From contig CAYVAJ010000007.1 in the NCBI GenBank assembly GCA_964448725.1, forward strand, positions 1-58,531: DNA of 58,531 nucleotides. The letters are read 5' to 3'. Source of the DNA: an uncultured Gammaproteobacteria bacterium (GTDB lineage Bacteria > Patescibacteriota > Microgenomatia > Levybacterales > GWA1-39-11). The first letter of the stretch is position 1. Each line of letters starts with the position of its first letter. Positions 10,454 through 23,130 of the stretch are shown piece after piece. The position numbers and the translations under genes were made by a program. The notes below the pieces were generated by a model. It was not told where the DNA came from. It searched no databases and was given only the letters and a program-made list of their open reading frames with translations.

Positions 10454-12400
10454 CTACACTATTTTTGCTTTTAATTCTTTTTCCAGTGCGCTATATACTT
10501 TCTTGCGAATATCTACTATATCCTCATTCGTTAGATTGCGTTTCGCGTGCTGATAGACAATACGAAAAGTTTTTTTATCCTCATATGTATCAAGCAAAGT
10601 GACATCTTTTATTAAATTACTTTGTTTGGTAATTACTGAGACAATTTGTTCATAAGTAGTATCAGCTTCTGTTTGAAGACGTACGTCTTCAATAATTGGC
10701 GGATGTTTGATAATCGGTGTATATTTTTTAGCTGATGTGGCATGTGCAATGAGTTCAGTAAAATTAAGTTCAAAATCAACCAAATTAGAGTCTAAAATTT
10801 CGACAGTTCCAATGTGTCTTTTTTCAAGAAATATATCTGCACCATGAAGGTTATCTGAAGGTTTAAATGTAAGCTCAACATTAAGGTCTGTTGCCAGTTG
10901 TTCGATATACCCTTTTAGTGCATAAAAGGATATATTTTCTTTTTTGATAACTGCAGCCAAATACAGTATCTCATGTGGAAGATTCTTTCCGTTTTTTATA
11001 TATACATTGGCAATTTCAAAAAGCATGATGTGTTCATTACTATCATTTTCTCGTACTACTTCAAGAAGGCTTGGAATAAGAGATTTACGCATATACACAT
11101 GATCTTCATCAAGAGGATTTTTTAGTTTTATAGCTTCGGTTTCCGGACCCTCAAGCATAGTGTCTGATACCATTGAATATGTGTAGGTTTCAGTGAATCC
11201 CCAGTATTTGAATGCATTTTTAACTCTGCGCTCCCAGTAAAATGGATCAGATGCTTGATGGTATACAGCCGAGGTTTGCAGAGGCGGGAGTACTGAAGGT
11301 AAATTATGATAACCATATACTCTGGCAACTTCTTCAATAATGTCTTCTTCTATTGCTATATCGTTCATTCGCCAGCTTGGTACGGTAACTGTGATATTTG
11401 AATCATGCTGCACAGGATTAAACCCAAGGTCTTTGAGAATTGCTTTTATCTGCGTATCTTTTATATCAACCCCAATAACAGATCTGATAGTATGAGTATT
11501 TGCGGTAACGGTTTTCTCTTTTAAAGGATTCGGGTAGATATCGATAATATTTGATACTACAGTTGCCTGTGCGATTTCTTTGTAGAGTTGAATTCCGCGT
11601 AGAAAGGCTTTTTCCATGGTCTCAGGGTCAACTCCTTTTTCATTCAGTACTGCTGCTTCAGTACGTATTCCAAGATTCATAGATGTTTTGCGGATTATAT
11701 GAGGATTATTATTATCAAGAAAGAAAAGTATTCGCTTTGTTTGTGAAGTGACAACACTATTAGCAGTTCCCATAATACCAAGTAAATCAACAATTTCACC
11801 TTCCCCATTATCTGCCACTATATCGCCTCCAGGCAAAGTATATGTTTTTTTATCTAATGTCGTAATTTGTTCGCCTTTTTTGGATTGTCGAATGATGAGA
11901 TTTTTAGTGGTGAGTCGGTCATAGTCAAAAACGTGTGCAGGATGACCAGTCTCACGCATTACATAATTGGTAACGTCAATAATATTATTGAGACTGCGAA
12001 TATCACTTGTTTCAATTCGATTTTGTATTTTTTTAGGAGATGTTCCCATAGTGACCTCAAGTAATACTGCGAGTATTCTATTTACCAGCTTGGGGTCATT
12101 TTTGATGGTTATATCTGCTTTTTTTCCGATTGATGGTAAAGGCTGAGTTTTCAGCGGTTTAAACGCTGCCTGAACTCCAAATTGAGGAAGTACAACTGCT
12201 GCTTCTCGTGCAATTCCTATTACTGACATAAGATCAGGACGGTTTGTGGTGACTTCTATATCATATATGTAGTCTGATCCATGCTTTTCAATACGCTCAA
12301 CAGCGACGCTTGTCAATGACAATGCTTTAGTCATTTCAGATATTGTCGCTTTCGTATCGACATATTCTCGTAACCAACTGTCTAATATTTTTATGTTCAT
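10454..12400 (-). CDS. pheT: phenylalanine--tRNA ligase beta subunit (short form without N-terminal OB domain)
   Basis: B3/4, B5 and C-terminal anticodon-binding-like regions. Adjacent to pheS. Confidence 0.85.
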   Translation of the reverse strand: MNIKILDSWLREYVDTKATISEMTKALSLTSVAVERIEKHGSDYIYDIEVTTNRPDLMSVIGIAREAAVVLPQFGVQAAFKPLKTQPLPSIGKKADITIKNDPKLVNRILAVLLEVTMGTSPKKIQNRIETSDIRSLNNIIDVTNYVMRETGHPAHVFDYDRLTTKNLIIRQSKKGEQITTLDKKTYTLPGGDIVADNGEGEIVDLLGIMGTANSVVTSQTKRILFFLDNNNPHIIRKTSMNLGIRTEAAVLNEKGVDPETMEKAFLRGIQLYKEIAQATVVSNIIDIYPNPLKEKTVTANTHTIRSVIGVDIKDTQIKAILKDLGFNPVQHDSNITVTVPSWRMNDIAIEEDIIEEVARVYGYHNLPSVLPPLQTSAVYHQASDPFYWERRVKNAFKYWGFTETYTYSMVSDTMLEGPETEAIKLKNPLDEDHVYMRKSLIPSLLEVVRENDSNEHIMLFEIANVYIKNGKNLPHEILYLAAVIKKENISFYALKGYIEQLATDLNVELTFKPSDNLHGADIFLEKRHIGTVEILDSNLVDFELNFTELIAHATSAKKYTPIIKHPPIIEDVRLQTEADTTYEQIVSVITKQSNLIKDVTLLDTYEDKKTFRIVYQHAKRNLTNEDIVDIRKKVYSALEKELKAKIV

Positions 12401-12511
12401 ACAGATAATTTACAATTTTAAATTTTCAATTTTTACTGAATTTTCAATAATTAATTTTTTAACATTAAAACATTTAGATTTCATTTCAAATTTTAAATTT
12501 CAAAATAAAAA

Positions 12512-13567
12512 TTAAAATTGTCTAAGAAAATCTAGGTTATTTCCGTATAGTAGTCTCAGATCATCAATCTCAATCCCTTCTTTCATCATTAGAACACGCT
12601 CAACCCCCCAGCCAAACGCAAATCCATTATATTTTTTAGGGTCGATTCCGCTATTGCGCAGAACATTGGGGTGTACCATGCCAGCTCCACCCATTTCAAG
12701 CCAACCTTCTTTACATAATCTGCACCCTTTTCCTGCACATATACCACATGATACATCAACTTCAAATGACGGTTCAGTAAATTGGAAGTGGTATGGTCGT
12801 ATACGAGATACTCGTTTTTCTCCAAAATACGATTTTACAAAATAGTCCAATACTCCTTTGAGGTGCGTGATAGAAATACCATGATCAACTACGAGTCCTT
12901 CAAATTGATGGAACATTTGAGTATGAGATACATCTGACTGTCTGCGGTATGTTTTAGCAATATTTAACATTTTAATGGAAATGTTATTATCTTTTGCTTC
13001 TTTTGTTGCGCGAGTCATCTCTCTAATTTGTCCTGAGGAAGTATGAGGTGTGAGAAGCATTGGACCTTTTTTACTATCTACTGGTGTATCAATAAAAAAT
13101 GTTTCCCAGTCGTCTCGTGCAGGGTGCTGATCAGGAAAATTCAAAGCTTCAAATGCGTACCAATCCCACTCTACTTCTGGATACCGGACTCTGGTAAATC
13201 CAATTTTCTCAAAAATCTGAGTGATTTCATCAATTGCCTGAGTAACGAGATGTAGATGTCCAAGCGGCGGTTTGATACCAGGCATTGTTACATCGATATT
13301 ACTTGTTTGTTTTTTTCGGGATTCATTTTTAAGTGTTTTGAATTTATCTTCAATAAGTTCTTCAATCGCGTTTTTTACCTCATTTGCGAGTCTACCAATA
13401 ATTGGGCGTTGATCTGCAGGCACTTTTGGCAGTGTTTTAAGTGCTGCGGTAAGACGACCGTTACGTCCAATATACTCGAGTTTGATACGATTTAGCTCTT
13501 CAGCATTTTCAGCCGCAATAATCATGCTAACTGCATCATTTTTTATATTTATCAAATCATTTTGCAT
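12512..13567 (-). CDS. pheS: phenylalanine--tRNA ligase alpha subunit
   Basis: FPDQHPARD motif and class II core motifs. Confidence 0.9.
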   Translation of the reverse strand: MQNDLINIKNDAVSMIIAAENAEELNRIKLEYIGRNGRLTAALKTLPKVPADQRPIIGRLANEVKNAIEELIEDKFKTLKNESRKKQTSNIDVTMPGIKPPLGHLHLVTQAIDEITQIFEKIGFTRVRYPEVEWDWYAFEALNFPDQHPARDDWETFFIDTPVDSKKGPMLLTPHTSSGQIREMTRATKEAKDNNISIKMLNIAKTYRRQSDVSHTQMFHQFEGLVVDHGISITHLKGVLDYFVKSYFGEKRVSRIRPYHFQFTEPSFEVDVSCGICAGKGCRLCKEGWLEMGGAGMVHPNVLRNSGIDPKKYNGFAFGWGVERVLMMKEGIEIDDLRLLYGNNLDFLRQF

Positions 13568-13575
13568 AGTAAATA

Positions 13576-13604
13576 AGTTTAAAACTAATAGTGTAAAGTG
13601 TAAA
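13576..13604 (-). promoter_or_regulatory. pheS promoter TTTACA-17-TAAACT, leaderless geometry
   Basis: The -10 (13581-13576) ends 8 nt before ATG 13567. No SD. Confidence 0.5.
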
Positions 13605-13612
13605 ACTATAGC

Positions 13613-13996
13613 TTAAAGTTTAAATTTTCTTTTGCCTTTGAGCGTTAATAAGCTTGCACCAATTATATTACACAATTGCCTTGTTTCATCAAGAAATTGA
13701 TTAACTTTCACTTTATCACTTTCTGTAGCATCTCTTAAAATTCCTAACCAGTACTGTGTTTCAGTAGCGCTTTTTAATGCAATATTAAAAAACTTAATAA
13801 AATCACGTTTACTCGATGCCGCTTGTGCTTCAATTATATTTGCTCCGATCGAAGTGGCAGAACGTAGTAACTGATCAGATATAACCCAATATACCCTTGA
13901 ATCAGGTAGCGTTGAAACATATTTTACAATTGCAATTGAGAATTTATACGCGCGTATTTTTAACTCTTGCTTTGTTCTATTTTCTTCGCTATCCAT
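13613..13996 (-). CDS. four-helix-bundle protein (23S rRNA intervening-sequence protein family)
   Basis: SATSIGANIIEAQAASSKRDFIKFFNIALKSATETQYWL signature. Confidence 0.8.
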   Translation of the reverse strand: MDSEENRTKQELKIRAYKFSIAIVKYVSTLPDSRVYWVISDQLLRSATSIGANIIEAQAASSKRDFIKFFNIALKSATETQYWLGILRDATESDKVKVNQFLDETRQLCNIIGASLLTLKGKRKFKL

Positions 13997-14061
13997 TTTC
14001 AGTTATAGCTTTACATTTTAAGCTCTAAACTCTTCGCTTACCTGAAAGGATACCAGAAATT

Positions 14062-14385
14062 TTATTTGATTTCACTATCTTGAACGTGATGTGTTGCATC
14101 TGTGTCATTTTGTTCAGATGGAATATCATAGTCTTTATTACCATTGAGAGACATAAGAATTACCTCTTTCCCATTTCTTGGACATAGTGCAGTCTCAGTA
14201 CCCAAGAGTGATGCAGGGACAATTCCTGAATCATACTGACATCCTTTGATTTTTTCAGTTGCTAAATATGGACATGTGACTCCGTCATTTTGTATGCAGG
14301 GAGACAGCATGAGAGAATCATTTTGTTGTGTTTCTCTGATTGCTTGTGCCATATCAATTGATGTACGTATTTTATTTTCTATCAT
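14062..14385 (-). CDS. orphan 107-aa Cys-containing protein (driven by module M1)
   Basis: 13-nt SD AGAAAGGAGGTGA lies 7 nt before ATG 14385. No family recognised. Confidence 0.55.
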   Translation of the reverse strand: MIENKIRTSIDMAQAIRETQQNDSLMLSPCIQNDGVTCPYLATEKIKGCQYDSGIVPASLLGTETALCPRNGKEVILMSLNGNKDYDIPSEQNDTDATHHVQDSEIK

Positions 14386-14450
14386 ATGTATTTCACCTCC
14401 TTTCTTGTCATAACCTTCGGCTATGCTCAGGATATTGGCATTTTGCCAAT

Positions 14451-14473
14451 AAAAAAACCTCCCGTTTGGGAGG
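14451..14473 (-). terminator. intrinsic terminator CCTCCC-AAAC-GGGAGG-T7 (M1)
   Basis: 6-bp GC stem, 4-nt loop, seven T. Confidence 0.7.
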
Positions 14474-14501
14474 TCTGTGCATTCGTGGCTTTTACGTTTA
14501 T

Positions 14502-14606
14502 TTACTTGCTCATACCACGAGCAAACCTCCCTTTAAGGGAAGTAAAGTAAAAAAAGTAAAAAGCTTGCGCGGTTTGGGTAATGGTATATAGATTCTGAGC
14601 GGCCAT
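14502..14606 (-). CDS. possible 34-codon leader ORF of M1
   Basis: ATG 6 nt after the rplT stop. MAAQNLYTITQTAQAFYFFYFTSLKGRFARGMSK reads through seg1 and seg2 and stops 28 nt before seg3. No SD. Confidence 0.25.
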   Translation of the reverse strand: MAAQNLYTITQTAQAFYFFYFTSLKGRFARGMSK

Positions 14607-14611
14607 ATGAA

Positions 14612-14962
14612 TTATTTATCAAAGACTTTCTGAGTAATTGTTTTAAATGTTTCAGGATCAGATGATACGAGATTTGCTAAGATTTTACGGTCGATTTTAA
14701 TGTTTTTCTTGTTCATACCATCGATGAATTTGCTGTAAGAATATCCCATTTCATCAAGTGCACCATTAATTCGCGTAATCCAAAGTCTTCGCATATCACG
14801 TTTTCGTAATTTACGTCCATGAAACGCATATGCTCCTGCATGCAATACTGCTTCGTGAGCTGCTTTAATCAGTGTGCTTTTTGATGCACGGTATCCTTTT
14901 ACCTGCACCATTAATTTATTGTGTTTTCTTCGTGATACGGTTCCCCGTTTAATTCTAGCCAT
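14612..14962 (-). CDS. rplT: 50S ribosomal protein L20
   Basis: MARIKRGTVSRRKHNK... typical L20. Last gene of infC-rpmI-rplT. Confidence 0.95.
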   Translation of the reverse strand: MARIKRGTVSRRKHNKLMVQVKGYRASKSTLIKAAHEAVLHAGAYAFHGRKLRKRDMRRLWITRINGALDEMGYSYSKFIDGMNKKNIKIDRKILANLVSSDPETFKTITQKVFDK

Positions 14963-15036
14963 AATATCCTTTCAGGAAAATATCAATTCTCAAATCCCAA
15001 TTTTTGTTATTTGGTATTTGTATTTTGATATTTCAC

Positions 15037-15243
15037 TTATGCTTCTCCAAGCATTTGTTTGATTTTCTTTGCGAACTCACCTGTAGTGAGTACTCCAATT
15101 TCTTTTTGTCTTCGGATTCGTGACTTTGATTTATTCAGTTTTTTATGTGATCCATACTGATGGCCAAAAATCACTTTACCATTTTTGGTTACTCTGAATC
15201 TCTTTGATACTGAGCTTTTAATTTTTTTCTTTTGCTTTTTCAT
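15037..15243 (-). CDS. rpmI: 50S ribosomal protein L35
   Basis: MKKQKKKIKSSVSKRFRVTKNGKV... typical L35. Confidence 0.9.
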   Translation of the reverse strand: MKKQKKKIKSSVSKRFRVTKNGKVIFGHQYGSHKKLNKSKSRIRRQKEIGVLTTGEFAKKIKQMLGEA

Positions 15244-15253
15244 AATTTTCTCC

Positions 15254-15787
15254 TTATTTTAGTCTCGAAAGTATTGTTACCATTTGGCGACCTTCCATGT
15301 GTGGTTCTCGCTCAACTTTTGCAACATCTTCAAGCTTTGTAATCACTTTTCTCAAGACTTGTTCGCCGAGCTCTTTTTTCGTAAATTCTCTTCCACGGAA
15401 ACGGACTTCAAATTTTACCTTATCTCCATCATCAAAAAACTCTTTTGCTCGTTTTACCTTAATATCCAAATCGTGATCCCCGATAAAAGGTCCCATTCTG
15501 ATTTGTTTAGTCTCAGAAGTGACACTTTTTTTCTTCTCTTCTTGTTTCTTTTTCTTTAACTGATACAAAAACTTACTGTAATCAATTAATCGCGCTACAG
15601 GCGGTTTTGCCATTGGCGCAATCTCAACCAGATCTAATTCCTGTTCATCACTCAGTTTTCGTGCTTCATCGATGCTCATCACACCGATTTGTTTTCCTTC
15701 ACTGTCAAGAAGTCGTACTTCTCGAGCCCGGATCTGATGATTTATCCGGTAAAATGGTTGTTTTGTTTGATTATATTTTTTTCTCAA
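15254..15787 (-). CDS. infC: translation initiation factor IF-3
   Basis: RINHQIRAREVRLLDSEGKQIGV. The start codon is TTG (15787-15785), consistent with the known non-AUG autoregulated infC start. Overlaps the thrS end by 17 nt. Confidence 0.9.
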   Translation of the reverse strand: MRKKYNQTKQPFYRINHQIRAREVRLLDSEGKQIGVMSIDEARKLSDEQELDLVEIAPMAKPPVARLIDYSKFLYQLKKKKQEEKKKSVTSETKQIRMGPFIGDHDLDIKVKRAKEFFDDGDKVKFEVRFRGREFTKKELGEQVLRKVITKLEDVAKVEREPHMEGRQMVTILSRLK

Positions 15788-17540
15788 TTTCGTTTTGGAT
15801 TCTCTCTAAAAATTCAGAGAGCGCAAGACTTCCAAGATCTTTGCCGTCACGGGTTCGGATGCTTACTATCTCTTTTCCCACACTATTACTCTCGGATTCT
15901 TCCTTTCCGCCTATTATACACAGATAAGGCACCTTTTGTAAAGTAGCCTCACGGATTTTTGCTCCTACTGTTTGGTTTGAGTTATCAAGCTCAACACGAA
16001 CTCCAGAAGACTCTATTATTTTATAAATTTTTTGAGCATATTCTTCAACTTTTTCTGAGACAGGCAAGACTGCGACTTGTGTAGGTGCAAGCCAGACAGG
16101 AAATGCACCAACATAGTGTTCGATGAGTATTCCTAAGAACCGTTCAAGTGAGCCATAAATTGCCCGATGAAAAACAACAGGCATTTTTTCTGATCCATCA
16201 GATTCTGTATATTTAAGCTTAAAGTTTTTAGGTTGCTGAAAATCAAGTTGAATTGTTCCTGTTTGCCATTGTCGGCCAATTGCGTCTTGCATGAGAATAT
16301 CTACCTTTGGTCCATAAAATGCTCCTTCTCCTTCGGCTTTAAAGTATTCTTGACCTGATTCTTTGAGGACTGATTCTAATGCTTCTTCTGCCATATCCCA
16401 GTCTTTACTTTCTCCCATAAATTTTTCAGGCCTTGTACCAAATCGTAATGTATAGGAGAGATTAAATGGTGCATACATTGCGTCAATCATCTGCATAATC
16501 TGATCAAATTCATCTTTAATCTGATCTAAAGTAATAAATATATGAGCATCATCCTGCCTGAACTGTCTAGTTCTAAATAGTCCGTTAAGCGTTCCTGAAC
16601 GCTCAAATCGATGTAAAAGACTTGTATCAGCAAGTCTTAAGGGGAGGTCATTATATGATCTGGTTTTTGATTTAAATATAACCATTGCATTTGGACAGTT
16701 CATTGGTTTTATTCCAAATATTTCATCATTACTCTGCTCTTTAGCTGGTATTTGCAGACGGTCCATATCGGCAATGAACATATCATCCTTATAATGTGAC
16801 CAATGTCCAGAGGTTTCATACAACTCTTTTTTATTTAATTGCGGAGTCATTACTTCTTGATAGTCAAATTTGGTATATATTTCTCGAGTAAAGTCATATA
16901 GTATGTTATATAAAACAAGACCTTTTGGAAGCCAATATGTCATACCAGGGGATGTCTCATGAATCATAAATAAATCAAGGTCTTTACCGATTTTTTTGTG
17001 GTCACGTCTTTTTGCTTCTTCTAGCATATGCAGATATGCATCAAGTTCTTCTTGTGTTGGAAAACAAGTGCCGTAAATTCGGGTAAGCATTGGATTTTTT
17101 TCATCTCCGCGCCAATATGCCCCAGCAAGTGATAACAGCTTAAAAGCACCTATATTTTTATTTGGTGTTTCACTATGTCCGCCACGACACAGGTCTTCAA
17201 ACATACCAGCTTTGTAAAATGTGAGTTTTTCACCTCTGTTCTCAATCTCATCAATGAGTTCAAGTTTGAAAGGGTTATCATGGTAATATTCACGTGCCTG
17301 TTCAGCAGATACTTCCCGATGGGAAAATTTATCCCAGTCTTTGAGTGTCTTCTCCATCATTTTTTCAATTTTTGGGAGATCTGATTCTGAGATGGGTTGG
17401 GCGAACTGAAAGTCATAATAGAACCCATGCTCTATTGCTGGTCCAATTGTGAGCTTTGTATCTGGATATAGTCGTAGAACTGCTGCCGCAAGCAAATGCG
17501 CACACGAGTGTCGTAGATTGTTTAATGCTTCATTATTCAT
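15771..17540 (-). CDS. thrS: threonine--tRNA ligase (no N-terminal TGS domain)
   Basis: Editing/second-additional-domain HxxxH (SCAHLLA), class II core, anticodon-binding domain. Confidence 0.9.
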   Translation of the reverse strand: MNNEALNNLRHSCAHLLAAAVLRLYPDTKLTIGPAIEHGFYYDFQFAQPISESDLPKIEKMMEKTLKDWDKFSHREVSAEQAREYYHDNPFKLELIDEIENRGEKLTFYKAGMFEDLCRGGHSETPNKNIGAFKLLSLAGAYWRGDEKNPMLTRIYGTCFPTQEELDAYLHMLEEAKRRDHKKIGKDLDLFMIHETSPGMTYWLPKGLVLYNILYDFTREIYTKFDYQEVMTPQLNKKELYETSGHWSHYKDDMFIADMDRLQIPAKEQSNDEIFGIKPMNCPNAMVIFKSKTRSYNDLPLRLADTSLLHRFERSGTLNGLFRTRQFRQDDAHIFITLDQIKDEFDQIMQMIDAMYAPFNLSYTLRFGTRPEKFMGESKDWDMAEEALESVLKESGQEYFKAEGEGAFYGPKVDILMQDAIGRQWQTGTIQLDFQQPKNFKLKYTESDGSEKMPVVFHRAIYGSLERFLGILIEHYVGAFPVWLAPTQVAVLPVSEKVEEYAQKIYKIIESSGVRVELDNSNQTVGAKIREATLQKVPYLCIIGGKEESESNSVGKEIVSIRTRDGKDLGSLALSEFLERIQNEIEKKI

Positions 17541-17629
17541 ACTTTATACTTATCTCGTACTATATCAGAAAATAGGCTCAATATGAAGTCTTATTCTTAC
17601 AAAAGCATATCTGCAGCTATGCTTTGTTT

Positions 17630-17860
17630 TTACTCCAAATTGGTATCCAATAAAACTACTTCTTCTGATATATCAAGCACTTCATTGCTCGCATATTCTG
17701 GATTTGCTTTGACGAGACTTCCTATTCCAATGTACGGTAACTCATTTACTGATGGGTTTTCTGATTGGTAAGCTCTTTTACTTTCCGCAATTTTTTCTCT
17801 TCGTTCTTCAGTAGTTCCACTAAATATGTAATCAGTTATTAATCTTTCTCGTTCAGACAT
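17630..17860 (-). CDS. orphan 76-aa acidic protein (driven by module M2)
   Basis: AGAAAGGAGGTGA SD. The ATG at 17860 is preferred over the track GTG that lies inside the SD. Confidence 0.5.
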   Translation of the reverse strand: MSERERLITDYIFSGTTEERREKIAESKRAYQSENPSVNELPYIGIGSLVKANPEYASNEVLDISEEVVLLDTNLE

Positions 17861-17924
17861 ATATGTCACCTCCTTTCTTGTTATAACCTTTGGCTATGCT
17901 CAGGGTTATTGGTATTTTGCCAAT

Positions 17925-17947
17925 AAAAAAACCTCCCATGTGGGAGG
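17925..17947 (-). terminator. intrinsic terminator CCTCCC-ACAT-GGGAGG-T7 (M2)
   Basis: 6-bp GC stem plus T7. Confidence 0.7.
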
Positions 17948-17974
17948 TCTGTCAGCACGCAAACAAAAACCTCC

Positions 17975-18019
17975 CTAGGAAGCTTTCATTTGCATCATTA
18001 CGTTAGTTGTTATTATCAT
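17975..18019 (-). CDS. 14-codon leader mini-ORF of M2 (MIITTNVMMQMKAS)
   Basis: ATG 9 nt after TATAAT (18034-18029). The stop TAG (17977-17975) is the loop of the seg1:seg2 hairpin. Confidence 0.4.
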   Translation of the reverse strand: MIITTNVMMQMKAS

Positions 18020-18059
18020 AGTGCAATTATTATATATCAAATCTTTCATTTGTATGCAA

Positions 18060-18332
18060 TTAGCTATTGCGGATTGAGCCTTGTTCATACAGGTAATTTA
18101 AAATATCACTGATAAAATTCCCAACAAACGGTATAACGTCAACGAACTGAGATAAAAGACTTACTAATGAAAGAATTAACGCAATACCAATGATCGATCC
18201 AATTCCCCAAAAAATACCTCCAAGTAAATTGTTTGCGATTATCTCTCCTTTTGATAATTTAGAAGATCTTTCAAATGGTTGAACTGGTGTGGTTGGTGGG
18301 GGTGTTTCTTTGCTTTTCTTAAATTTTGCCAT
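18060..18332 (-). CDS. small membrane protein
   Basis: Start taken at MAKFKKSKETPPP because the longer track ORF runs into the tRNA-Val gene. One TM helix GGIFWGIGSIIGIALILSLVSLL. Confidence 0.5.
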   Translation of the reverse strand: MAKFKKSKETPPPTTPVQPFERSSKLSKGEIIANNLLGGIFWGIGSIIGIALILSLVSLLSQFVDVIPFVGNFISDILNYLYEQGSIRNS

Positions 18333-18397
18333 TGCGTCTACTAGTGTACCATAATTATGTGATTTTGGAACCCCAGATAATGCTGAATAGAGTTTTG

Positions 18398-18469
18398 TGC
18401 GCGCACATGGGTTCGAACCAAGGACCTCTTCGATGTCAACGAAGCACTCTACCACTGAGCTATGCGCGC
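18398..18469 (-). tRNA. tRNA-Val (GAC)
   Basis: Hand-folded cloverleaf: acceptor GCGCGCA/TGCGCGC, anticodon arm CTTCG-TTGACAT-CGAAG, T-loop TTCGAAC (one U-U in the T stem). No encoded CCA. Confidence 0.8.
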
Positions 18470-18479
18470 TAATTTAAAT

Positions 18480-18655
18480 TAATGTGCTCACCACACTTGT
18501 CTGCGGCTTGCCTTGCAAGTGATCTCCCTCACTACGTTCAGTCCGATCCAACTGAGCTATGACTCCAAATAAAGCTGTCTGTTTGATAGTTAGCAGACTT
18601 AAGCTATGACTCCGGAATAATCAAAACCTGACTATGATAGACAAGCTATGACTTG
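18480..18655 (-). repeat. three tandem copies of a tRNA 5'-end-like fragment
   Basis: Minus strand GGAGTCATAGCTCAGTTGGA (18566-18547), GGAGTCATAGCTT (18613-18601), AAGTCATAGCTT (18654-18643). No matching 3' acceptor strand found. Confidence 0.5.
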
Positions 18656-18703
18656 CGAGAGCCTCACAATTATACAAAAGCAGTACGTGTTTGACAATGA
18701 AGA

Positions 18704-18943
18704 TTATCCTTTATGTACCAGATCTTGTATATGTACTATCTGGTTTTCTGATGCACTTACTTCATTAAATGGATTTTCAGGATATTGTACTTCAATGAGA
18801 TCACCATATGAATCAAAAGCATTTTGGATAGCTGCTGTTACGTGCTCAACTTCTTGAACAGAATTCTGCTGGGTATGCTCCAAATCTCTATTACTCCAGT
18901 TGTTATACATATCTTGTATCATTGCTAATTCATGATTTGCCAT
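18704..18943 (-). CDS. orphan 79-aa acidic protein (driven by module M3)
   Basis: AGAAAGGAGGTGA SD 7 nt before ATG 18943. Confidence 0.5.
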   Translation of the reverse strand: MANHELAMIQDMYNNWSNRDLEHTQQNSVQEVEHVTAAIQNAFDSYGDLIEVQYPENPFNEVSASENQIVHIQDLVHKG

Positions 18944-19010
18944 ACTATTTTCACCTCCTTTCTTTTCATAACCCTTCGACTATGCTCAGGGTTATTGGCA
19001 TCTTGCCAAT

Positions 19011-19051
19011 AAAAAAACCTCCTGTTGCCTCGTTGTACGAGGTAAAGGAGG
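19011..19051 (-). terminator. intrinsic terminator CCTCC...GGAGG-T7 with inner hairpin (M3)
   Basis: CCTCC/GGAGG outer stem, inner CCTCG-TACAA-CGAGG, then seven T. Confidence 0.6.
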
Positions 19052-19078
19052 TTGCCAATTCACTGGAACAACACTCCC

Positions 19079-19132
19079 TTAAGGAGTAATAATTCCAAGA
19101 ATAATGTCAAATTGTATATATTGTTTTTTCAT
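19079..19132 (-). CDS. 17-codon leader mini-ORF of M3 (MKKQYIQFDIILGIITP)
   Basis: The stop TAA (19081-19079) is exactly the loop of hairpin ACTCCT-TAA-GGGAGT. Confidence 0.35.
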   Translation of the reverse strand: MKKQYIQFDIILGIITP

Positions 19133-19167
19133 ATGTTGTCTAGCTATATTTTTGTTAGTTTCGAGAT

Positions 19168-19191
19168 GAGGGGCACAGACGTGTGCCCCTC
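19168..19191 (-). terminator. GC-rich hairpin after ORF 19267-19548
   Basis: GAGGGGCAC-6 nt-GTGCCCCTC, a 9-bp stem with no clear T-run. Confidence 0.4.
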
Positions 19192-19266
19192 GTGATAGTA
19201 AGCCGGTCAGCGGTTTTCCAATTTCCTCGCGATTGAGGAGTTGGACAGTCAAGCGCTGTCCCGGAC

Positions 19267-19548
19267 TTAAAATTGTGGTACTTGTGTTTTATCTCCAAAG
19301 CTAGGGCCACGTTTGTTGCCCTGTTTACGCTTTTCTGGGTGCACAAGAGGCCCCCAGGGAGTATCTGAAGGAGGATCTTGAATGTGGGAGTAGCCATCAT
19401 CTGAAACTGCTCCACAATTCTTTTCATCGGGAGCGCTATAATTAGTAGCGCCATCCCATTCGCCCCAATGAGCCTCAAGGATTTCTCGATGAAGCTCTGC
19501 TAACTTGAGTTCCTCTCGGTTCGGTCTGCGTAGTTTACTGGAGTTCAT
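19267..19548 (-). CDS. G+C-rich orphan protein D (93 aa)
   Basis: GAAAGGAAG SD 5 nt before the ATG. 13-nt gap after the upstream ORF. No family recognised. Confidence 0.5.
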   Translation of the reverse strand: MNSSKLRRPNREELKLAELHREILEAHWGEWDGATNYSAPDEKNCGAVSDDGYSHIQDPPSDTPWGPLVHPEKRKQGNKRGPSFGDKTQVPQF

Positions 19549-19560
19549 GATACTTCCTTT

Positions 19561-20163
19561 CTATCCGAAAACATACTCAGATACGGTTGCTCGGATCCCA
19601 CGTCGGCGTGAACGATTCTTTCGTTCCTCCTTGAATTGTCTGACAGGTGTCATATCCCAGTCGTGACCGACCAGTCTATCCCACCTGTTAAGCCATTCTT
19701 GAGCTTGAGCGTTATCCTGTGGCACAGAGCCACACGGAAGTATGCTCTGGTCCTTTTGAAGGACGCGGAGATGAGCGAACCGCAACGTATTGTTGACGAG
19801 AACGCTCATGTCGTGCTTGAGGTGGCGCAGATCGCCTTTCCTCACAAGATGTACCATCGGCGTCTTTAACGCCAGAGGAATGATATCCTTACCGATGAGT
19901 CTGTAAGACTCGATCATAAGGTTCTTTTTGAACCACCTAAACAACTTGCGGTTGCCATCGTAGCCCATGAAGAACAATCCGTCACTTGGAACTTCTTCAG
20001 GATAATCCACTATTTGAACTTTTACGCCTTTTCGTCCTCTTTGAGTTTGGATCGCCATACTGGCTAACTCATCAGAGGAGAGTGCGTAAAGCGTAATGCT
20101 AGGTTGAATGGGAAGTTCCATTTCTTTTATTCCTTGCCGTAAGATTGAATCTATTCCCTTCAC
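19561..20163 (-). CDS. G+C-rich orphan protein C (about 186-200 aa, start uncertain)
   Basis: The track start is GTG 20163. An alternative ATG at 20121 (MELPIQP) has AAGGAA upstream. Basic C-terminal tail KNRSRRRG. Confidence 0.5.
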   Translation of the reverse strand: MKGIDSILRQGIKEMELPIQPSITLYALSSDELASMAIQTQRGRKGVKVQIVDYPEEVPSDGLFFMGYDGNRKLFRWFKKNLMIESYRLIGKDIIPLALKTPMVHLVRKGDLRHLKHDMSVLVNNTLRFAHLRVLQKDQSILPCGSVPQDNAQAQEWLNRWDRLVGHDWDMTPVRQFKEERKNRSRRRGIRATVSEYVFG

Positions 20164-20420
20164 CTCTGTGGTCTATCACACCCTCATGGATGGTGACTCC
20201 TTTCACTTGTACGACTACCACGGTAAAGGGATACTGATGACAAGACATATCACCACTATTCCCTTCACCGTGTGATTAGTACCACGGTGTCTTGTACTGC
20301 ACACAATCGCAGTTGCGCTTTTGCACCATTGATCGTGTTTTCCAAGACGATGTTAATGTACATGCCCCTAAAAAACATCCTTCGGCAATGCTCAGGATTG
20401 TATTTTCTCCTATAAAATAC

Positions 20421-20445
20421 AAAAAAACCTCCCTTTTTGGGGAGG
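20421..20445 (-). terminator. intrinsic terminator CCTCCCC-AAAAA-GGGAGG-T7 (M4)
   Basis: GC stem plus seven T. Confidence 0.7.
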
Positions 20446-20486
20446 TAGTTAGGTATATTCTTTGGGCTATATTGCTCCTCCCACTA

Positions 20487-20543
20487 TTAGACCGCCTCTG
20501 TAAAGAGGACGTTCACAATAATAGGAAGGAGTTGCATACTCAT
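20487..20543 (-). CDS. 18-codon leader mini-ORF of M4 (MSMQLLPIIVNVLFTEAV)
   Basis: ATG 10 nt after the -10, no SD. TAA sits 4 nt before seg2. Same length and same stop context GGTCTAAT as in M6. Confidence 0.5.
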   Translation of the reverse strand: MSMQLLPIIVNVLFTEAV

Positions 20544-20617
20544 ATTAGTAATTATTTTATGCTCATCTGTTTGATTTGTCAACACTGAATTATTTTTTTA
20601 TGATCTTGAGAAAGATT

Positions 20618-20644
20618 GGTTCGGGAGGATAGACCCCCCGAACC
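20618..20644 (-). terminator. 11-bp hairpin after ORF B
   Basis: GGTTCGGGGGG-TCTAT-CCTCCCGAACC (one G-U). Weak T-run. Confidence 0.4.
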
Positions 20645-20691
20645 AAAACGAGAATGCGTGGGCATCAATATTCCGAGCGTACACGGAAATG

Positions 20692-21243
20692 TTACCCCAG
20701 CATCCAGCCAGTGTGCGGACTGAGCAGCCCTCGACTGATTGTGACCGGAGATTTGTATCGATACCGGCGCAGTTTCATGAGTACCTGCTTTAGATCAGGC
20801 GTTTCTTCCCAGTCGACAGAAAGATTTCTCAGGATCTGTACTTCCTTCAGCCATTGTTCATACAGAAGCATGTTTGCTTCCTCTGTGGGCTCACTTGGTC
20901 CCCAGGGGTTCCCTGTATAGTTGCTAACTCGCCATTCTTCGATAGCGACGGCCGCTTCGAGAAGCGGAATATCCAACGAAGCCTCAGCGGATACATAAAT
21001 CCCAAGACGATTAGGTGTCGCAATTGAGTTAGGGCACTCTACTCTGTGTGATGCTGTGCGGATGACAGGAACTTTCTTGTGTTCTGATTCTTGCGGCATT
21101 GCAGTAATTAAGATATCTGTTTCCTCGTGCAGGTCATTGTACTTGTTTGGATAACGCACAATGCATCCTGCGTATTCAAGGATCCTTCCTGCCTCAATCA
21201 CTCGTGGCGGGCTATCAAGATATACACTATATACACACCGCAT
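20692..21243 (-). CDS. G+C-rich orphan protein B (183 aa)
   Basis: AAAGGA SD 8 nt before the ATG. The N-terminus MRCVYSVYLDSPPRVIEAGRILEYAGCIV resembles that of protein A. Confidence 0.55.
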   Translation of the reverse strand: MRCVYSVYLDSPPRVIEAGRILEYAGCIVRYPNKYNDLHEETDILITAMPQESEHKKVPVIRTASHRVECPNSIATPNRLGIYVSAEASLDIPLLEAAVAIEEWRVSNYTGNPWGPSEPTEEANMLLYEQWLKEVQILRNLSVDWEETPDLKQVLMKLRRYRYKSPVTISRGLLSPHTGWMLG

Positions 21244-21405
21244 GATGTGATCCTTTCAGTAAAATCTTTCTCCCCAGATTGGGAGCTAACAAACTCTGAC
21301 GTCTGTCAGAATTTCTCTACTCACAACCTGGTATGTCAAAGAACTACCCATTCGACAACCTGCTTGTAGGCAGGGCTCAGGGTTATGATTCTATTTATAA
21401 GTCAC

Positions 21406-21429
21406 AAAAAAACCTCCCTTTTGGGGAGG
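21406..21429 (-). terminator. intrinsic terminator CCTCCCC-AAAA-GGGAGG-T7 (M5)
   Basis: GC stem plus seven T. Confidence 0.7.
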
Positions 21430-21455
21430 TGCTTTCAGTTAAAAATTATTTTTTA

Positions 21456-21542
21456 CTATACTTTCAGACTATCCCTCCCCACAGCAGTGATATGCCACAT
21501 ACGTGGGAGAGATGTAAGTGTAAAAGAATTGTTTAATTTCAT
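21456..21542 (-). CDS. 28-codon leader mini-ORF of M5 (MKLNNSFTLTSLPRMWHITAVGRDSLKV)
   Basis: ATG 7 nt after the -10 (leaderless). Reads through seg1 and seg2. Stop lies 26 nt before seg3. Confidence 0.45.
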   Translation of the reverse strand: MKLNNSFTLTSLPRMWHITAVGRDSLKV

Positions 21543-21582
21543 ACGGTCTAGTTTAAAGAATATATAGGATTCTGTCAAGGTT

Positions 21583-21616
21583 AAAAGATGCGCGGCGGAT
21601 GGTGATTTCCGCCGCG
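21583..21616 (-). terminator. terminator of ORF A
   Basis: CGCGGCGGA-8 nt-TCCGCCGCG, a 9-bp stem, then CATCTTTT. Sits 5 nt before the M5 -35. Confidence 0.55.
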
Positions 21617-21684
21617 TGTAGTGTGCAATTAGCTCGGTATGAGCATTTGGTCCGACCATGTCGGGAAATACTCCTTGTTCCGAA

Positions 21685-22161
21685 CTAGTAGCCGCTGTAG
21701 AGGCGGACATATCGCACTTTCGGCTTTCCCCTCGCGTCAATGACCGCATAATTGGCCTCTTCGGCCATACGGTTTAATGTTATTTGAATCCTGCGAGGGA
21801 GAGGTTCGTCTATTTTGACAGCAATTTCTTTTGCTGCGTTTACCACAGCAAAGGCAAAGCTGCCTGCGTATTGAGCATTTAAATGCTCACGCATCACTAT
21901 GTGCTGTGAGAACGCTTTTGCCCACCCGGGCATGTGTTCGTCAGATACCCTACGGCGGGTAGTCATGACGTGCCGTTTGTTCCATTGGACTGATCCAAGG
22001 GGAACAAAGATTGCAACATCACCAGGATCTGGATCCATCGCAAAGACGAACCGTTGTGTTTCATGCAGGACTGCTTTCTCTTTCACGAGAAATCCAGCAT
22101 TTCTCAGAGCTTCAGCTGCTTTTGTGCTGGTCGGGCATTCAACATTATAGATGATACGCAT
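21685..22161 (-). CDS. G+C-rich orphan protein A (158 aa)
   Basis: GGAGGTG SD 4 nt before ATG 22161 (the track ORF is 18 codons longer). Line 21901-21960 counts 36/60 G+C. Confidence 0.55.
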   Translation of the reverse strand: MRIIYNVECPTSTKAAEALRNAGFLVKEKAVLHETQRFVFAMDPDPGDVAIFVPLGSVQWNKRHVMTTRRRVSDEHMPGWAKAFSQHIVMREHLNAQYAGSFAFAVVNAAKEIAVKIDEPLPRRIQITLNRMAEEANYAVIDARGKPKVRYVRLYSGY

Positions 22162-22296
22162 GACGCACCTCCATGCTACTTCCACATTGGAAGCACAGAA
22201 CGTTTGACAGTTCAAACGCTCTTCTCTTCCAATGATAATTACTGTTAAAGAACACCCTTCGACAAGCTCAGGGTTATGATTCTATTTATAAGTCAC

Positions 22297-22319
22297 AAAA
22301 AAACCTCCCGTGTGGGAGG
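22297..22319 (-). terminator. intrinsic terminator CCTCCC-ACAC-GGGAGG-T7 (M6)
   Basis: GC stem plus seven T. Confidence 0.7.
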
Positions 22320-22362
22320 TTCCTGAAATTGTATGTAATTTACTTATGACATCTCTCCCACA

Positions 22363-22419
22363 TTAGACCCGCTCCATAAGGAGACAGAAATCAAAAAGTG
22401 GATAGAGATTTTTCATCAT
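22363..22419 (-). CDS. 18-codon leader mini-ORF of M6 (MMKNLYPLFDFCLLMERV)
   Basis: ATG 9 nt after the -10, no SD. TAA sits 3 nt before seg2. Confidence 0.5.
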   Translation of the reverse strand: MMKNLYPLFDFCLLMERV

Positions 22420-22461
22420 TTCGTAATTATTTTAACGAAGTAAAAGCGTTTGTGTCAAGTA

Positions 22462-23130
22462 TTATCCGGTTTGAGTTGCTATTGAACGTTCTGAAGACAA
22501 GCTAAATGAAGTGCCTTTTTTAGCAAACTGATTCCAATATTTTTGTTGACCTTTTTTGCTTGCAAAAAGTGCCAGCCAGTTTTTCCCTTCCTCTACTCGT
22601 ACGCGTGCGTTACGGACTGTAATGAGTACCCATTCCAAGAAATTAACTTGATATGTACTTGCTTTCCCTAAAGTACTTTCTACGGTTACTTGATGGGAAA
22701 CTTGCTTAAATGCCATTTCCATTTCTTTTGACGCTTTAATAAGTTTTTTTATTTCCATTTGCAGTAGCTCTACCTGCTGAGTTGTTTCAATTTCTTGCGT
22801 AGAAGATGTCTCTGCATGATCGAAAGATCGGACATATTCTCGATGCTCAGCGGTGATCGTTGCTTTTTCTCCTGATTTTTCTTGAATAAGTGAGAATTCT
22901 TGTCCTTCTTGCAGTACCGCTTCTTGACGAATATTCTCTGTTTTTTCTGATTTTTTACTCAACAGCTGCTCAGGAAGGGTCTGTTTTGCAGACGCTTTGA
23001 AAAAATCTTCCCACATGCTGCGAATTGCATCTTTTGAGAGCGTTGAGACTTGTTTTCCCACTTCATTTCCGCTTGTTTCAATAGAATCTTGAAAGTAGGA
23101 TTGTTTGTTAGATTTACCCTGTTGTTTCAT
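22462..23130 (-). CDS. hypothetical protein (222 aa)
   Basis: Long AT-rich ORF between tig and M6. Polar, Lys/Glu/Gln-rich. No family recognised. Confidence 0.55.
   Translation of the reverse strand: MKQQGKSNKQSYFQDSIETSGNEVGKQVSTLSKDAIRSMWEDFFKASAKQTLPEQLLSKKSEKTENIRQEAVLQEGQEFSLIQEKSGEKATITAEHREYVRSFDHAETSSTQEIETTQQVELLQMEIKKLIKASKEMEMAFKQVSHQVTVESTLGKASTYQVNFLEWVLITVRNARVRVEEGKNWLALFASKKGQQKYWNQFAKKGTSFSLSSERSIATQTG

Follow-up and report, generated by a model that had tools for sequence, protein, structure and literature searches.

The window analysed here is a 58.5-kb stretch of DNA (58,531 nucleotides; contig CAYVAJ010000007.1) in which six candidate regulatory modules, designated M1 to M6, precede genes on the minus strand. 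Each module comprises a short leader open reading frame (ORF) and four segments (seg1 to seg4), the last two of which form a hairpin followed by a run of T residues. The modules had been put forward in an earlier prediction made from the sequence alone (the original prediction), and reading of the minus strand from 23000 to 13800 together with the ORF list placed all six at the same coordinates. All module features, and all genes described below as lying behind a module, are on the minus strand. M6, M5, M4 and M3 follow one another in this order between a DUF5660 gene (22462-23130) and tRNA-Val (18397-18469). M2 and M1 head thrS-infC-rpmI-rplT and pheST respectively, with a small ORF interposed. 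The region behind M2 (14612-17860) encodes orf76 (17630-17860) and then thrS (15771-17540), infC, rpmI and rplT (14612-14962). M1 comes next, and the region behind it (10454-14385) encodes orf107 (14062-14385), a 23S-rRNA-IVP protein (13613-13996) whose gene (the IVP gene) also stands before pheS, pheS itself (12512-13567) and pheT (10454-12400).

A pattern scan of the whole window for CCTCCC-N3-6-GGGAGG-T5+ gave exactly five matches, all on the minus strand: M1 (14453-14473), M2 (17927-17947), M4 (20423-20445), M5 (21408-21429) and M6 (22299-22319). The same pattern had 0 matches in 100 shuffles. M3 carried a longer variant, AACCTCC..GGAGG-T7, at 19011-19053. The scan thus agreed with the earlier claim that the CCTCCC/GGGAGG-T7 hairpin is confined to the six modules. 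Pattern and folding placed the M1 terminator (seg3:seg4 and T7) at 14451-14475. The remaining terminators were at 17925-17949 (M2), 19011-19053 (M3, with an inner hairpin in the long variant), 20421-20446 (M4), 21406-21431 (M5) and 22297-22321 (M6). All six stems had energies of -10 to -16.5 kcal/mol and were followed by T7.

The M1 leader ORF (14502-14606; 34 codons, MAAQNLYTITQTAQAFYFFYFTSLKGRFARGMSK) contains the run FYFFYF. Its ATG lies 5 nt past the rplT stop codon and has no Shine-Dalgarno sequence (SD); seg1 is ACTTCCCT (14536-14543) and the SD-like seg2 is AGGGAGGT (14525-14532). The M2 leader ORF (17975-18019) encodes MIITTNVMMQMKAS, with seg1 AAAGCTTCC at 17978-17986 and seg2 GGGAGGTTTTT at 17965-17975. 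In M3 the leader ORF (19079-19132; MKKQYIQFDIILGIITP) has five Ile codons, and seg1 TACTCCT and seg2 GGGAGTG lie within 19072-19088 with the stop codon TAA between them. The M4 leader ORF (20487-20543; MSMQLLPIIVNVLFTEAV) has seg1 CTCCTTCC (20524-20531) and seg2 GGGAGGAG (20475-20482). M5 (21456-21542; MKLNNSFTLTSLPRMWHITAVGRDSLKV) contains ..SLPRMWH.. and resembles a decayed Trp leader, with seg1 TCTCTCCCAC at 21503-21512 and seg2 GTGGGGAGGGA at 21472-21482, and M6 (22363-22419) encodes MMKNLYPLFDFCLLMERV, with seg1 ATCTCTATCCAC at 22398-22409 and seg2 GTGGGAGAGAT at 22351-22361. Every seg1:seg2 pairing that had been proposed was present, at the proposed location, in the minimum-free-energy fold. 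Clusters of regulatory codons were evident in M1 (FYFFYF), in M3 (five Ile) and in M4 and M6, which are rich in Leu, Ile and Val; those of M2 and M5 were weaker.

Sigma-70-like promoters had also been assigned to M4, M5 and M6, and these were the top three matches on the relevant strand in 13900-22700: TTGACA-17-TAAAAT (20554-20582; 11/12 positions) for M4, TTGACA-17-TAAACT (21550-21578; 10/12 positions) for M5 and TTGACA-18-TAAAAT (22429-22458; 11/12 positions) for M6. The promoter region of M2 contained TTGCAT-17-TATATA at 18031-18059 and a TATAAT at 18029-18034, located 9 nt before the ATG. Promoter-like matches in the region overall were at the level of chance (24 found, 23 expected). No promoter-like site was found between the T-tracts and the genes behind them, save for a weak match (9/12) over the orf107 start codon. 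The genes preceding M4 and M5 had terminator-like hairpins at 20616-20646 and 21591-21616, respectively.

Relatives of the region were collected from three sources. A tblastn-confirmed scan of metagenome contigs for ThrS gave 62 loci; a DNA-pattern scan of GTDB genomes gave 45 loci, of which four were close in design (L002, L031, L039 and L043); and protein look-ups gave the strain variants L108-L114 and a third syntenic relative, L235. The samples SRR23814900-02 and SRR7082966/76 contain the organism of the window or close strains of it. The nearest labelled relative, L031, is a metagenome-assembled genome (MAG) of Levyibacteriota, and the syntenic GTDB contig L002 is labelled Gammaproteobacteria, a label that we think is wrong. 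Judged by L031 and by its gene content (IVP protein, DUF5660 and DUF5665), the window probably comes from a Patescibacteria/Microgenomates-type bacterium. From these contigs 39 further leaders of the same design were recovered, with runs of one amino-acid class, which together with the six window modules gave a collection of 45. An SD was found before none of the 45 leader ORFs. About half of the leaders had a perfect TTGACA at 17-18 nt spacing, with a -10 element ending 3-15 nt before the ATG. Given the missing SD and the proximity of the -10 element to the start codon, the leader peptides appear to open leaderless transcripts. Together with the near-lack of promoter-like sites beyond the T-tracts, this speaks indirectly against transcripts that begin downstream of those tracts.

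The leaders fell into aromatic (M1), Thr or Thr/Met (M2), Ile (M3), branched-chain/Leu (M4 and M6) and Trp (M5) classes. In around 19 relatives an aromatic leader directly followed rplT and contained the run (Y/F)(F/Y)WF(Y/T)(Y/F)FT(S/P), for example YFWFYFTS, followed by seg1 ACTTCCC, seg2 GGGAGG, one or two small hairpins and CCTCCC-loop-GGGAGG-T7-9. These leaders preceded pheST, often with one small unrelated ORF in between, or else a DAHP-synthase-family gene (in L063) or a gene for a PfkB kinase. Thr-class leaders preceded thrS directly or past one ORF (MNKEIVATTTTTAS, MIYSDIITTTIIL, MKTIILITTTTATP, MKAMTVITTTTATP, MKIQIALTTTTTLS), and in each of them the stop codon adjoined GGAGG and was followed by the same kind of terminator. 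Three to five Thr codons in a run lay directly upstream of thrS in L050, L053, L062 and L064, and before a small ORF and thrS in L067. The M2 peptide was nearest to that of L051 (MRALFTTMMHMPS); that of L050 is MNKEIVATTTTTAS. Ile leaders matching M3 were found in L056 and L063 (ending in IITP or TITP) and in L235 (MKNKQIKIILAIIYS), and Leu/Ile/Val-rich leaders matched M4 and M6. The M4 peptide was nearly conserved between L002 (MHKQLFPIIMVVLFNEAI), L235 (MSLQLLSIINIVLFTEAI) and the window, and the M6 orthologue in L235 reads MHKNLFSLYLSYLLER. The ..SLPRMWH.. of M5 corresponds to the Trp-Trp leaders ..SPRWWK.. of L002 and ..HPRWWR.. of L235. The two weaker leaders of the window, M2 and M5, have relatives with TTTTT, TTMMHM or PRWW. 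L235 and the window agreed in which gene family follows which leader class, even though the proteins share only 20-38% identity.

A covariance model (R1) was built from 17 aromatic leaders, none of them from the window or its closest relative, and was run on both strands of the whole window without filters. The six best matches were the six modules: M1 scored 75.3 bits (E=3.6e-11), M6 43.5, M5 41.9, M4 32.9, M2 19.4 and M3 19.3. The seventh match scored 15.4 bits (E=1.3). In the strain variants (96-100% identity) substitutions in M1 sat in the unstructured 5′ part of the leader ORF, and there were none in seg1, seg2 or seg4 nor, for M1, in the inserted hairpins described below. An exact complement of seg3 of at least 6 nt lay upstream in 25 of the 45 leaders, compared with 2.7% of dinucleotide shuffles. 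Seg1 varied yet stayed paired, as with CTCCTTCC and CTCTTCCC, both of which oppose GGGAGGAG. The complementarity of seg1, seg2 and seg3 that had been expected at homologous loci was thus present in the homologous leaders, backed by conservation and not by covariation.

Two further observations concern the segment region. In M2 (17965-17986) and in L050 (7918-7935) the seg1:seg2 hairpin (GCTTCC-TAG-GGAGG) itself precedes TTTTT, and so resembles an additional, weak terminator upstream of the principal one. In around 15 of the 19 aromatic leaders (L047-L104) start, single sense and stop codons followed one another 6-8 nt past the SD-like seg2, for example ATG GTT TAA and GTG GCG TAA, with GTG GTA TGA in M1 (14509-14517). 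They were in the leader frame in some cases only, and may be translated two-codon ORFs or a by-product of the conserved hairpin.

Folding of the free RNA gave the 1:2 and 3:4 (terminator) structure for all six modules. When seg1 was masked and the RNA was cut just before seg4, as the transcript would stand at the point of decision for the polymerase, the 2:3 pairing was the minimum-free-energy structure in 6/6 modules; when seg1 and seg2 were both masked, the terminator returned. In full-length RNA with seg1 masked, 2:3 was the best structure for M1 and M5, and for M2 and M3 it fell short of the best by no more than 1 kcal/mol. A simulated ribosome footprint was also shifted codon by codon along the 45 leaders, the unconstrained minimum-free-energy fold of which contained the terminator in 39 cases. 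For most leaders, the six of the window all being clear cases, an antiterminator pairing 5-6 of the 6 seg3 bases was confined to a range of A-site positions over the regulatory codons, such as ATTTT (L050), YYWFIF (L048), NVMMQM (M2) and QFDIILGI (M3). This range closed once the footprint arrived at seg2 or at the stop codon. Constraint folding and the footprint scan accordingly upheld the idea that 2:3 pairing is energetically competitive, in M4 and M6 only before seg4 has been made.

From this anatomy, conservation and energetics we consider it likely that each module is a ribosome-mediated (leader-peptide) transcription attenuator. The 1:2, 2:3 and 3:4 logic proposed for all six was supported by folding, by the 39 further leaders and by the covariance model made from foreign leaders. 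Sequence anatomy, conservation, amino-acid classes and thermodynamic feasibility are the observations from which we infer termination, read-through and a response to amino acids. A sigma-70-type promoter would start an essentially leaderless transcript, the first 14-34 codons of which would be translated as RNA polymerase proceeds. When the cognate charged tRNA is scarce, the ribosome would stall at codons before or inside seg1 and hold seg1 off seg2; the freed seg2 (GGGAGG) would then pair with seg3 (CCTCCC), no terminator would form and the polymerase would read into the downstream genes. With unhindered translation the ribosome would reach the stop codon at or just after seg2 and cover seg2, so that seg3:seg4 and U7 would stop transcription. 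If there is no translation, seg1 would pair with seg2, and the seg3:seg4 and U7 terminator would again stop transcription. M1 would sense Phe/Tyr and control orf107, the IVP gene and, probably, pheST; M2 would sense Met and/or Thr and control orf76 and possibly thrS-infC-rpmI-rplT. M3 would sense Ile, M4 and M6 would sense Leu/Ile/Val, and M5 would be a Trp leader reduced from two Trp codons to one.

Several observations weigh against this interpretation. The sigma-70-like scan of 13900-22700 gave no convincing promoter for M1 or M3. With just two Thr codons and three internal Met codons in the M2 leader and a single Trp codon in the M5 leader, both may be weak or decaying sensors. A proximal promoter belonging to thrS itself is present in almost every relative, which makes the influence of M2 on thrS uncertain, and orf183, which lies behind the Trp leader M5, is itself Trp-rich (5/183 residues), which would be odd for a gene induced by shortage of Trp-tRNA. 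In full-length M4 and M6 with seg1 masked the terminator state was 7-9 kcal/mol more stable than the antiterminator, and read-through would therefore need to be kinetic. There was very little covariation, because the CCUCC/GGAGG helices are nearly invariant: in the Thr-family alignment only 2/11 pairs showed a double change, and in the aromatic family register shifts left RNAalifold with no consensus pairing between seg1 and seg2. Finally, attenuation presupposes coupling of transcription and translation in these bacteria, which is a premise of the argument rather than an established property.

The 3:4 hairpin might instead act mainly or only on translation, hiding an SD (seg4) with the U-tract as a spacer, as in erm/cat-like translational attenuation. 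Seg2 and seg4 are the same in sequence because both are SD sequences. In 27/44 leaders seg4 (GGGAGG) and U6-9 were directly followed by ATG or GTG, compared with 78/1819 (4.3%) of the other T-runs of at least 6 nt in the same loci. The start codon after the T-tract opened the main ORF in 7/26 cases, and in 12/26 it opened an upstream ORF (uORF) of 2-22 codons ending at most 25 nt from the main start, giving 19/26 in which it led into the main ORF or a short coupled uORF. Five of the uORFs had an ATGA overlap, which is typical of translational coupling. Within the window only M5 and M6 keep a uORF after the T-tract (GTG ACT TAT AAA TAG), and a strain variant of it (GTG GTT TCT GAA TAA) has five substitutions with the length unchanged. 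Against a purely translational role, the G+C-rich stem of 6-9 bp followed by U7 is a canonical intrinsic terminator, M1 to M4 have no start codon after the T-tract, and M1 to M3 have their own strong SD 45-60 nt further on, beyond the reach of the hairpin. We regard this alternative as improbable. The two modes are compatible: translation is unlikely as the sole mode and plausible as an added layer in relatives. The statistics suggest that in the family at large the terminator 3′ arm and U-tract probably double as ribosome-binding site and spacer, and that in relatives one hairpin probably gates translation as well.

It is very improbable, in our judgement, that the hairpins are ordinary terminators of the preceding genes, of small RNAs or of tiny protein genes, with the alternative pairings a by-product of SD and anti-SD sequences. 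In favour of this alternative, M1 follows rplT and M3 follows orf93, neither with a clear promoter; the helices hardly covary; and attenuated transcripts of 95-155 nt could act in trans, in the manner described for the Sinorhizobium trpL attenuator RNA (PMC6614838). Ordinary terminators would nevertheless leave unexplained the class-specific codon runs exactly where a stalled ribosome frees seg2, the match of these classes to thrS, pheST and DAHP-synthase contexts, and the stop codon that adjoins seg2 in M2, M3, M4 and M6. Nor would they account for the terminator-like hairpins that the genes preceding M4 and M5 have of their own, ahead of the M4 and M5 promoters, or for the lack of promoter-like sites between T-tract and genes.

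Attenuation as set out above leaves the repeated sequences between terminator and gene to be described. M1, M2 and M3 had been reported to be about 90% identical here, and 90-91% was found over the 78-94 nt from terminator to start codon; the stretch shared by M5 and M6 was 96% identical over 51 nt. In M1 to M3 the shared sequence runs from the invariant terminator through a first hairpin, ATTGGCAAAATGCCAAT, and another, AACCCTGAGC-AUAG-YCGAAGGGTT with possible tandem G.A pairs (the GA hairpin), to a canonical SD. M4 to M6 have the same arrangement with different first hairpins. The insert of M1 (14410-14450) consists of ATTGGCAAAATGCCAAT and the tandem-GA hairpin ATCCTGAGCATAGCCGAAGGTTAT. Those of M2 (17883-17924; variant CCAAAGG) and M3 (18968-19010) have the first and GA hairpins, and that of M4 (20377-20420) has GTATTTT..AAAATAC as its first hairpin. 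In M5 (21346-21405) the uORF is followed by a GA hairpin with an extra inserted stem, and in M6 (22254-22296) it is followed by the GA hairpin. Within the window the GA hairpin occurred only as these six single copies, each directly after an attenuator terminator.

The insert was not fixed in place. The closest relative, L080, had the M1 leader and terminator and lacked the insert hairpins, which were present in none of around 37 leaders from the thrS loci L046-L107. At the M4-type attenuator the insert was present in the window and L002 and absent from L235; at the Trp-type attenuator it was present in the window and L235 and absent from L002. The L235 insert was the M1-M3 version (around 39/44 nt), at a non-orthologous attenuator. 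As the insert comes and goes at orthologous attenuators, the copied element is a separate 44-nt unit abutting the U-tract, which may have spread by either transposition or gene conversion between identical flanks (terminator and SD). The earlier view that the six modules are copies of one module was therefore given up: they represent at least five amino-acid classes, each with orthologues elsewhere, and the copied part is the 44-nt insert. For the same reason we find it barely credible that the whole module is a dispersed MITE- or REP-like repeat multiplied in the region and lacking a regulatory role, since, for all the identity among M1 to M3 and between M5 and M6 and the membership of the CCTGAGC..CGAAGG hairpin in a repeat class found in many phyla and viral contigs, the repeated part spans only terminator to ribosome-binding site, each module has a leader ORF and seg1 of its own, and orthologues at the same positions (L080, L047, L050, L235 and others) have no insert; a repeat is accepted for the 44-nt insert, the only part that it fits.

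MAGs of Chloroflexota and Ktedonobacteraceae contained the GA-hairpin core CUGAGC-loop-CGAAG in many copies and as inverted doublets. Further occurrences came from Flavobacteria, Treponema, Proteobacteria, an Asgard MAG and numerous viral contigs. No Rfam family matched the hairpin at E<=10, either in the window or in the Flavobacteria and Chloroflexota copies, and a literature search with its sequence and its spurious translations found no paper. Complementarity of the outer stem was in modest excess across 75 instances (2.7 consecutive pairs, 1.9 in a shuffled control). In five insert copies with a start codon after the T-tract, the short uORF stopped just before or inside the GA hairpin. 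Self-cleaving ribozyme, K-turn and boxB-like readings of CUGAGC..CGAAG were considered and set aside, given an incomplete hammerhead core and the lack of a K-turn bulge. Like REP/REPIN elements, the GA hairpin is a short imperfect intergenic palindrome with many copies in some lineages, inverted doublets in a Chloroflexota MAG and presence or absence at orthologous sites. It differs from them in that its core recurs across many phyla and viral contigs, which is atypical of REPs, and in that in this lineage it always adjoins an attenuator U-tract. Our guess is that the insert serves as a 5′ stabiliser or processing site for the read-through mRNA.

A more inclusive interpretation joins three proposals, and all three together seem to us rather unlikely. 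The modules would be dual-purpose attenuators, in which the leaderless transcript opens with a sensor peptide and one hairpin gates both transcription and translation, the terminator 3′ arm acting as SD and the U-tract as start-codon spacer. They would make up a genome-wide starvation regulon of aminoacyl-tRNA synthetase operons and fast-evolving genes, possibly for scavenging or host interaction, in candidate-phyla bacteria unable to make amino acids. The 44-nt GA-hairpin element would be functional, perhaps stabilising the mRNA 5′ end, providing a processing site or acting as a coupling device, and would belong to a pan-bacterial unnamed class.

The genes directly behind the leaders had been described as orphans. 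None of these small genes had a Pfam or PHROG match, and in this respect the description stood; it did not stand for the genes behind M3 to M6, which have homologues in L235 behind the same leader class. L235 encodes homologues of orf158, orf183, orf200 and orf79 in the same order. The homologue of orf79 (18704-18943; behind M3) lies behind an Ile leader (E=3e-4). Behind M4 (19267-20376) are a conserved structured 5′ untranslated region (UTR) with a uORF at 20176-20187, orf200 (19561-20163), whose L235 homologue has 30% identity (E=2e-16), and orf93 (19267-19548). The homologue of orf183 (20692-21243; behind M5) has 38% identity and lies behind a Trp leader, and orf158 (21685-22161; behind M6) has a distant homologue behind an equivalent leader (E=8e-9). 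Since the L235 homologues share the leader class, the M3-M6 genes represent lineage-specific, fast-evolving families and not random ORFs. Clusters of these downstream proteins at 90% identity had 1-4 members. No homologue of orf107 was found beyond its own cluster, and a search of 1.84 billion representatives gave two distant relatives of orf183. Among 29 proteins behind leaders there was no BLASTP match at E<=0.01, and paralogy between the downstream proteins was therefore rejected.

The GC content of orf93, orf200, orf183 and orf158 was 47-49%, compared with 38% in the whole window and 38-40% in the leaders and UTRs that precede these ORFs, and the L235 and L002 homologues of the M4-M6 genes were likewise GC-rich. 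This composition raised the possibility of foreign genes captured behind native leaders, which is weakened by the occurrence of the same families behind the same classes in L235. A phage or moron origin was rejected: the composite of terminator and GA hairpin had 0 matches in viral contigs, and the downstream proteins had no PHROG match. Integron-like cassettes were rejected as well, as the 3′ ends of the small ORFs had no shared element.

Orf183 and its L235 homologue have 5-6 Trp residues each although they lie behind Trp leaders. Behind the aromatic leaders, different genomes have different small ORFs, several of them strikingly low in Phe/Trp/Tyr, with residue counts of 3/107 in orf107 of the window (14062-14385), 1/73 in L080 (2220-2441), 1/105 in L082 (4938-5255) and 0/75 in L101 (2070-2297). 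The low aromatic content of these proteins could be an adaptation to expression under aromatic starvation, or could reflect simple intrinsic disorder. The 5′ UTR between M4 and orf200 (20164-20376) was conserved in L002 and L235, with long-range pairing CGTCTTG..CAAGACA. Its uORF has its own strong SD and ends 13 nt before the orf200 start; it reads ATG AGG GTG TGA in the window, ATG AGG TCG TGA in L002 and GTG GGG ATT TCG TAA in L235.

Before thrS a conserved -10 element of the TTTGCTATAGTA type was found in nearly all relatives (loci L046-L091); the promoter in the window has TATAGT (17559-17587). The gap from this element to the ATG was 5-10 nt in several relatives, suggesting a leaderless thrS mRNA there, and around 18 nt in the window. 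Wherever a Thr leader and this proximal promoter both exist, the promoter lies downstream of the leader terminator. Upstream of tRNA-Val (18470-18690, minus strand) several GTCATAGCT copies and a stretch resembling a tRNA 5′ half (GGAGTCATAGCTCAGTTGGATCGG...) were seen; neither ARAGORN nor Rfam called a tRNA in this stretch. At the same place in L002 (900-1330) a GIY-YIG-type ORF lies between tRNA-like pieces. These pieces may be remnants of a split or invaded tRNA gene.

To our knowledge, the genomes of candidate-phyla (Patescibacteria-type) bacteria are tiny, encode next to no amino-acid biosynthesis and contain very few regulatory systems that have been recognised. A full-text literature search found no paper tying Patescibacteria or candidate-phyla bacteria to leader-peptide or transcription attenuation. 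If the attenuator interpretation is true, transcription-translation coupling and classical attenuation operate in this group, and the bacteria keep track of charging in at least five classes of tRNA. Every gene of unknown function that follows a leader would then carry a first functional label, induction in shortage of a given amino acid, which would offer an entry point to proteins without homologues. The 45 collected leaders suffice to seed covariance models for annotating such genomes.

The closest comparison among known systems is with Escherichia coli, in which thrS-infC-rpmI-rplT is followed by the pheM leader and then by pheS-pheT. Lying between rplT and pheST, M1 occupies the place of the E. 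coli pheM leader. Classical attenuators precede pheST in gamma-proteobacteria (PMC1262725). M1 and the E. coli pheST attenuator both have a Phe-rich run in a short leader ORF before a stem-loop and U-tract, with 1:2, 2:3 and 3:4 pairings. Between the two, no sequence homology has been demonstrated, and M1 differs in being leaderless and lacking an SD, in mixing Tyr (and Trp in relatives) with Phe, and in having orf107, the IVP gene and the two-hairpin insert between its terminator and pheS; in relatives the M1 leader class also precedes a DAHP-synthase-family gene. M1 aligned over the full Rfam Phe_leader model (RF01859), with its Phe codons, seg1:seg2 hairpin and CCUCCC/GGGAGG terminator, and scored 40.8 bits (E=3e-4); M6, M2 and M5 scored 26.8, 24.9 and 21.9 bits. 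As the gathering threshold is 55, the modules are not Phe_leader members by the Rfam criterion. The Thr, Trp and His leader families of Rfam had no match at E<=10 in 13900-22700, no amino-acid leader family other than Phe_leader gave a relevant match over a module, and at gathering thresholds only tRNAs were found in the window and 15 related loci.

Likeness to the T-boxes of thrS and pheS in Firmicutes is confined to the outcome, an aminoacyl-tRNA synthetase gene that is on when its tRNA is poorly charged, and to the use of alternative terminator and antiterminator structures. A T-box senses uncharged tRNA by direct binding and involves no leader peptide, and no T-box was matched by Rfam at the gathering score in the window or at E<=10 in 13900-22700. 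Attenuators before the synthetase genes trpS and leuS are known in Streptomyces (PMC1262725). These too are leader-peptide attenuators on a synthetase gene and not on a biosynthetic operon, in another phylum, on other synthetase genes (thrS and pheST here) and with other sequences. Functionally, the modules would share a mechanism class with the enterobacterial trp, thr, leu, his, phe and pheST leaders. Compared with known attenuators they appear, from their nucleotide sequence, to have variant traits: a leaderless sensor ORF, an SD within the terminator arm and a hairpin insert after the terminator. The mechanism would thus be a textbook one in a new setting, a small-genome candidate-phyla bacterium in which it is placed before two tRNA-synthetase operons and fast-evolving genes, and the interest rests mainly on where the attenuators occur and what they regulate.

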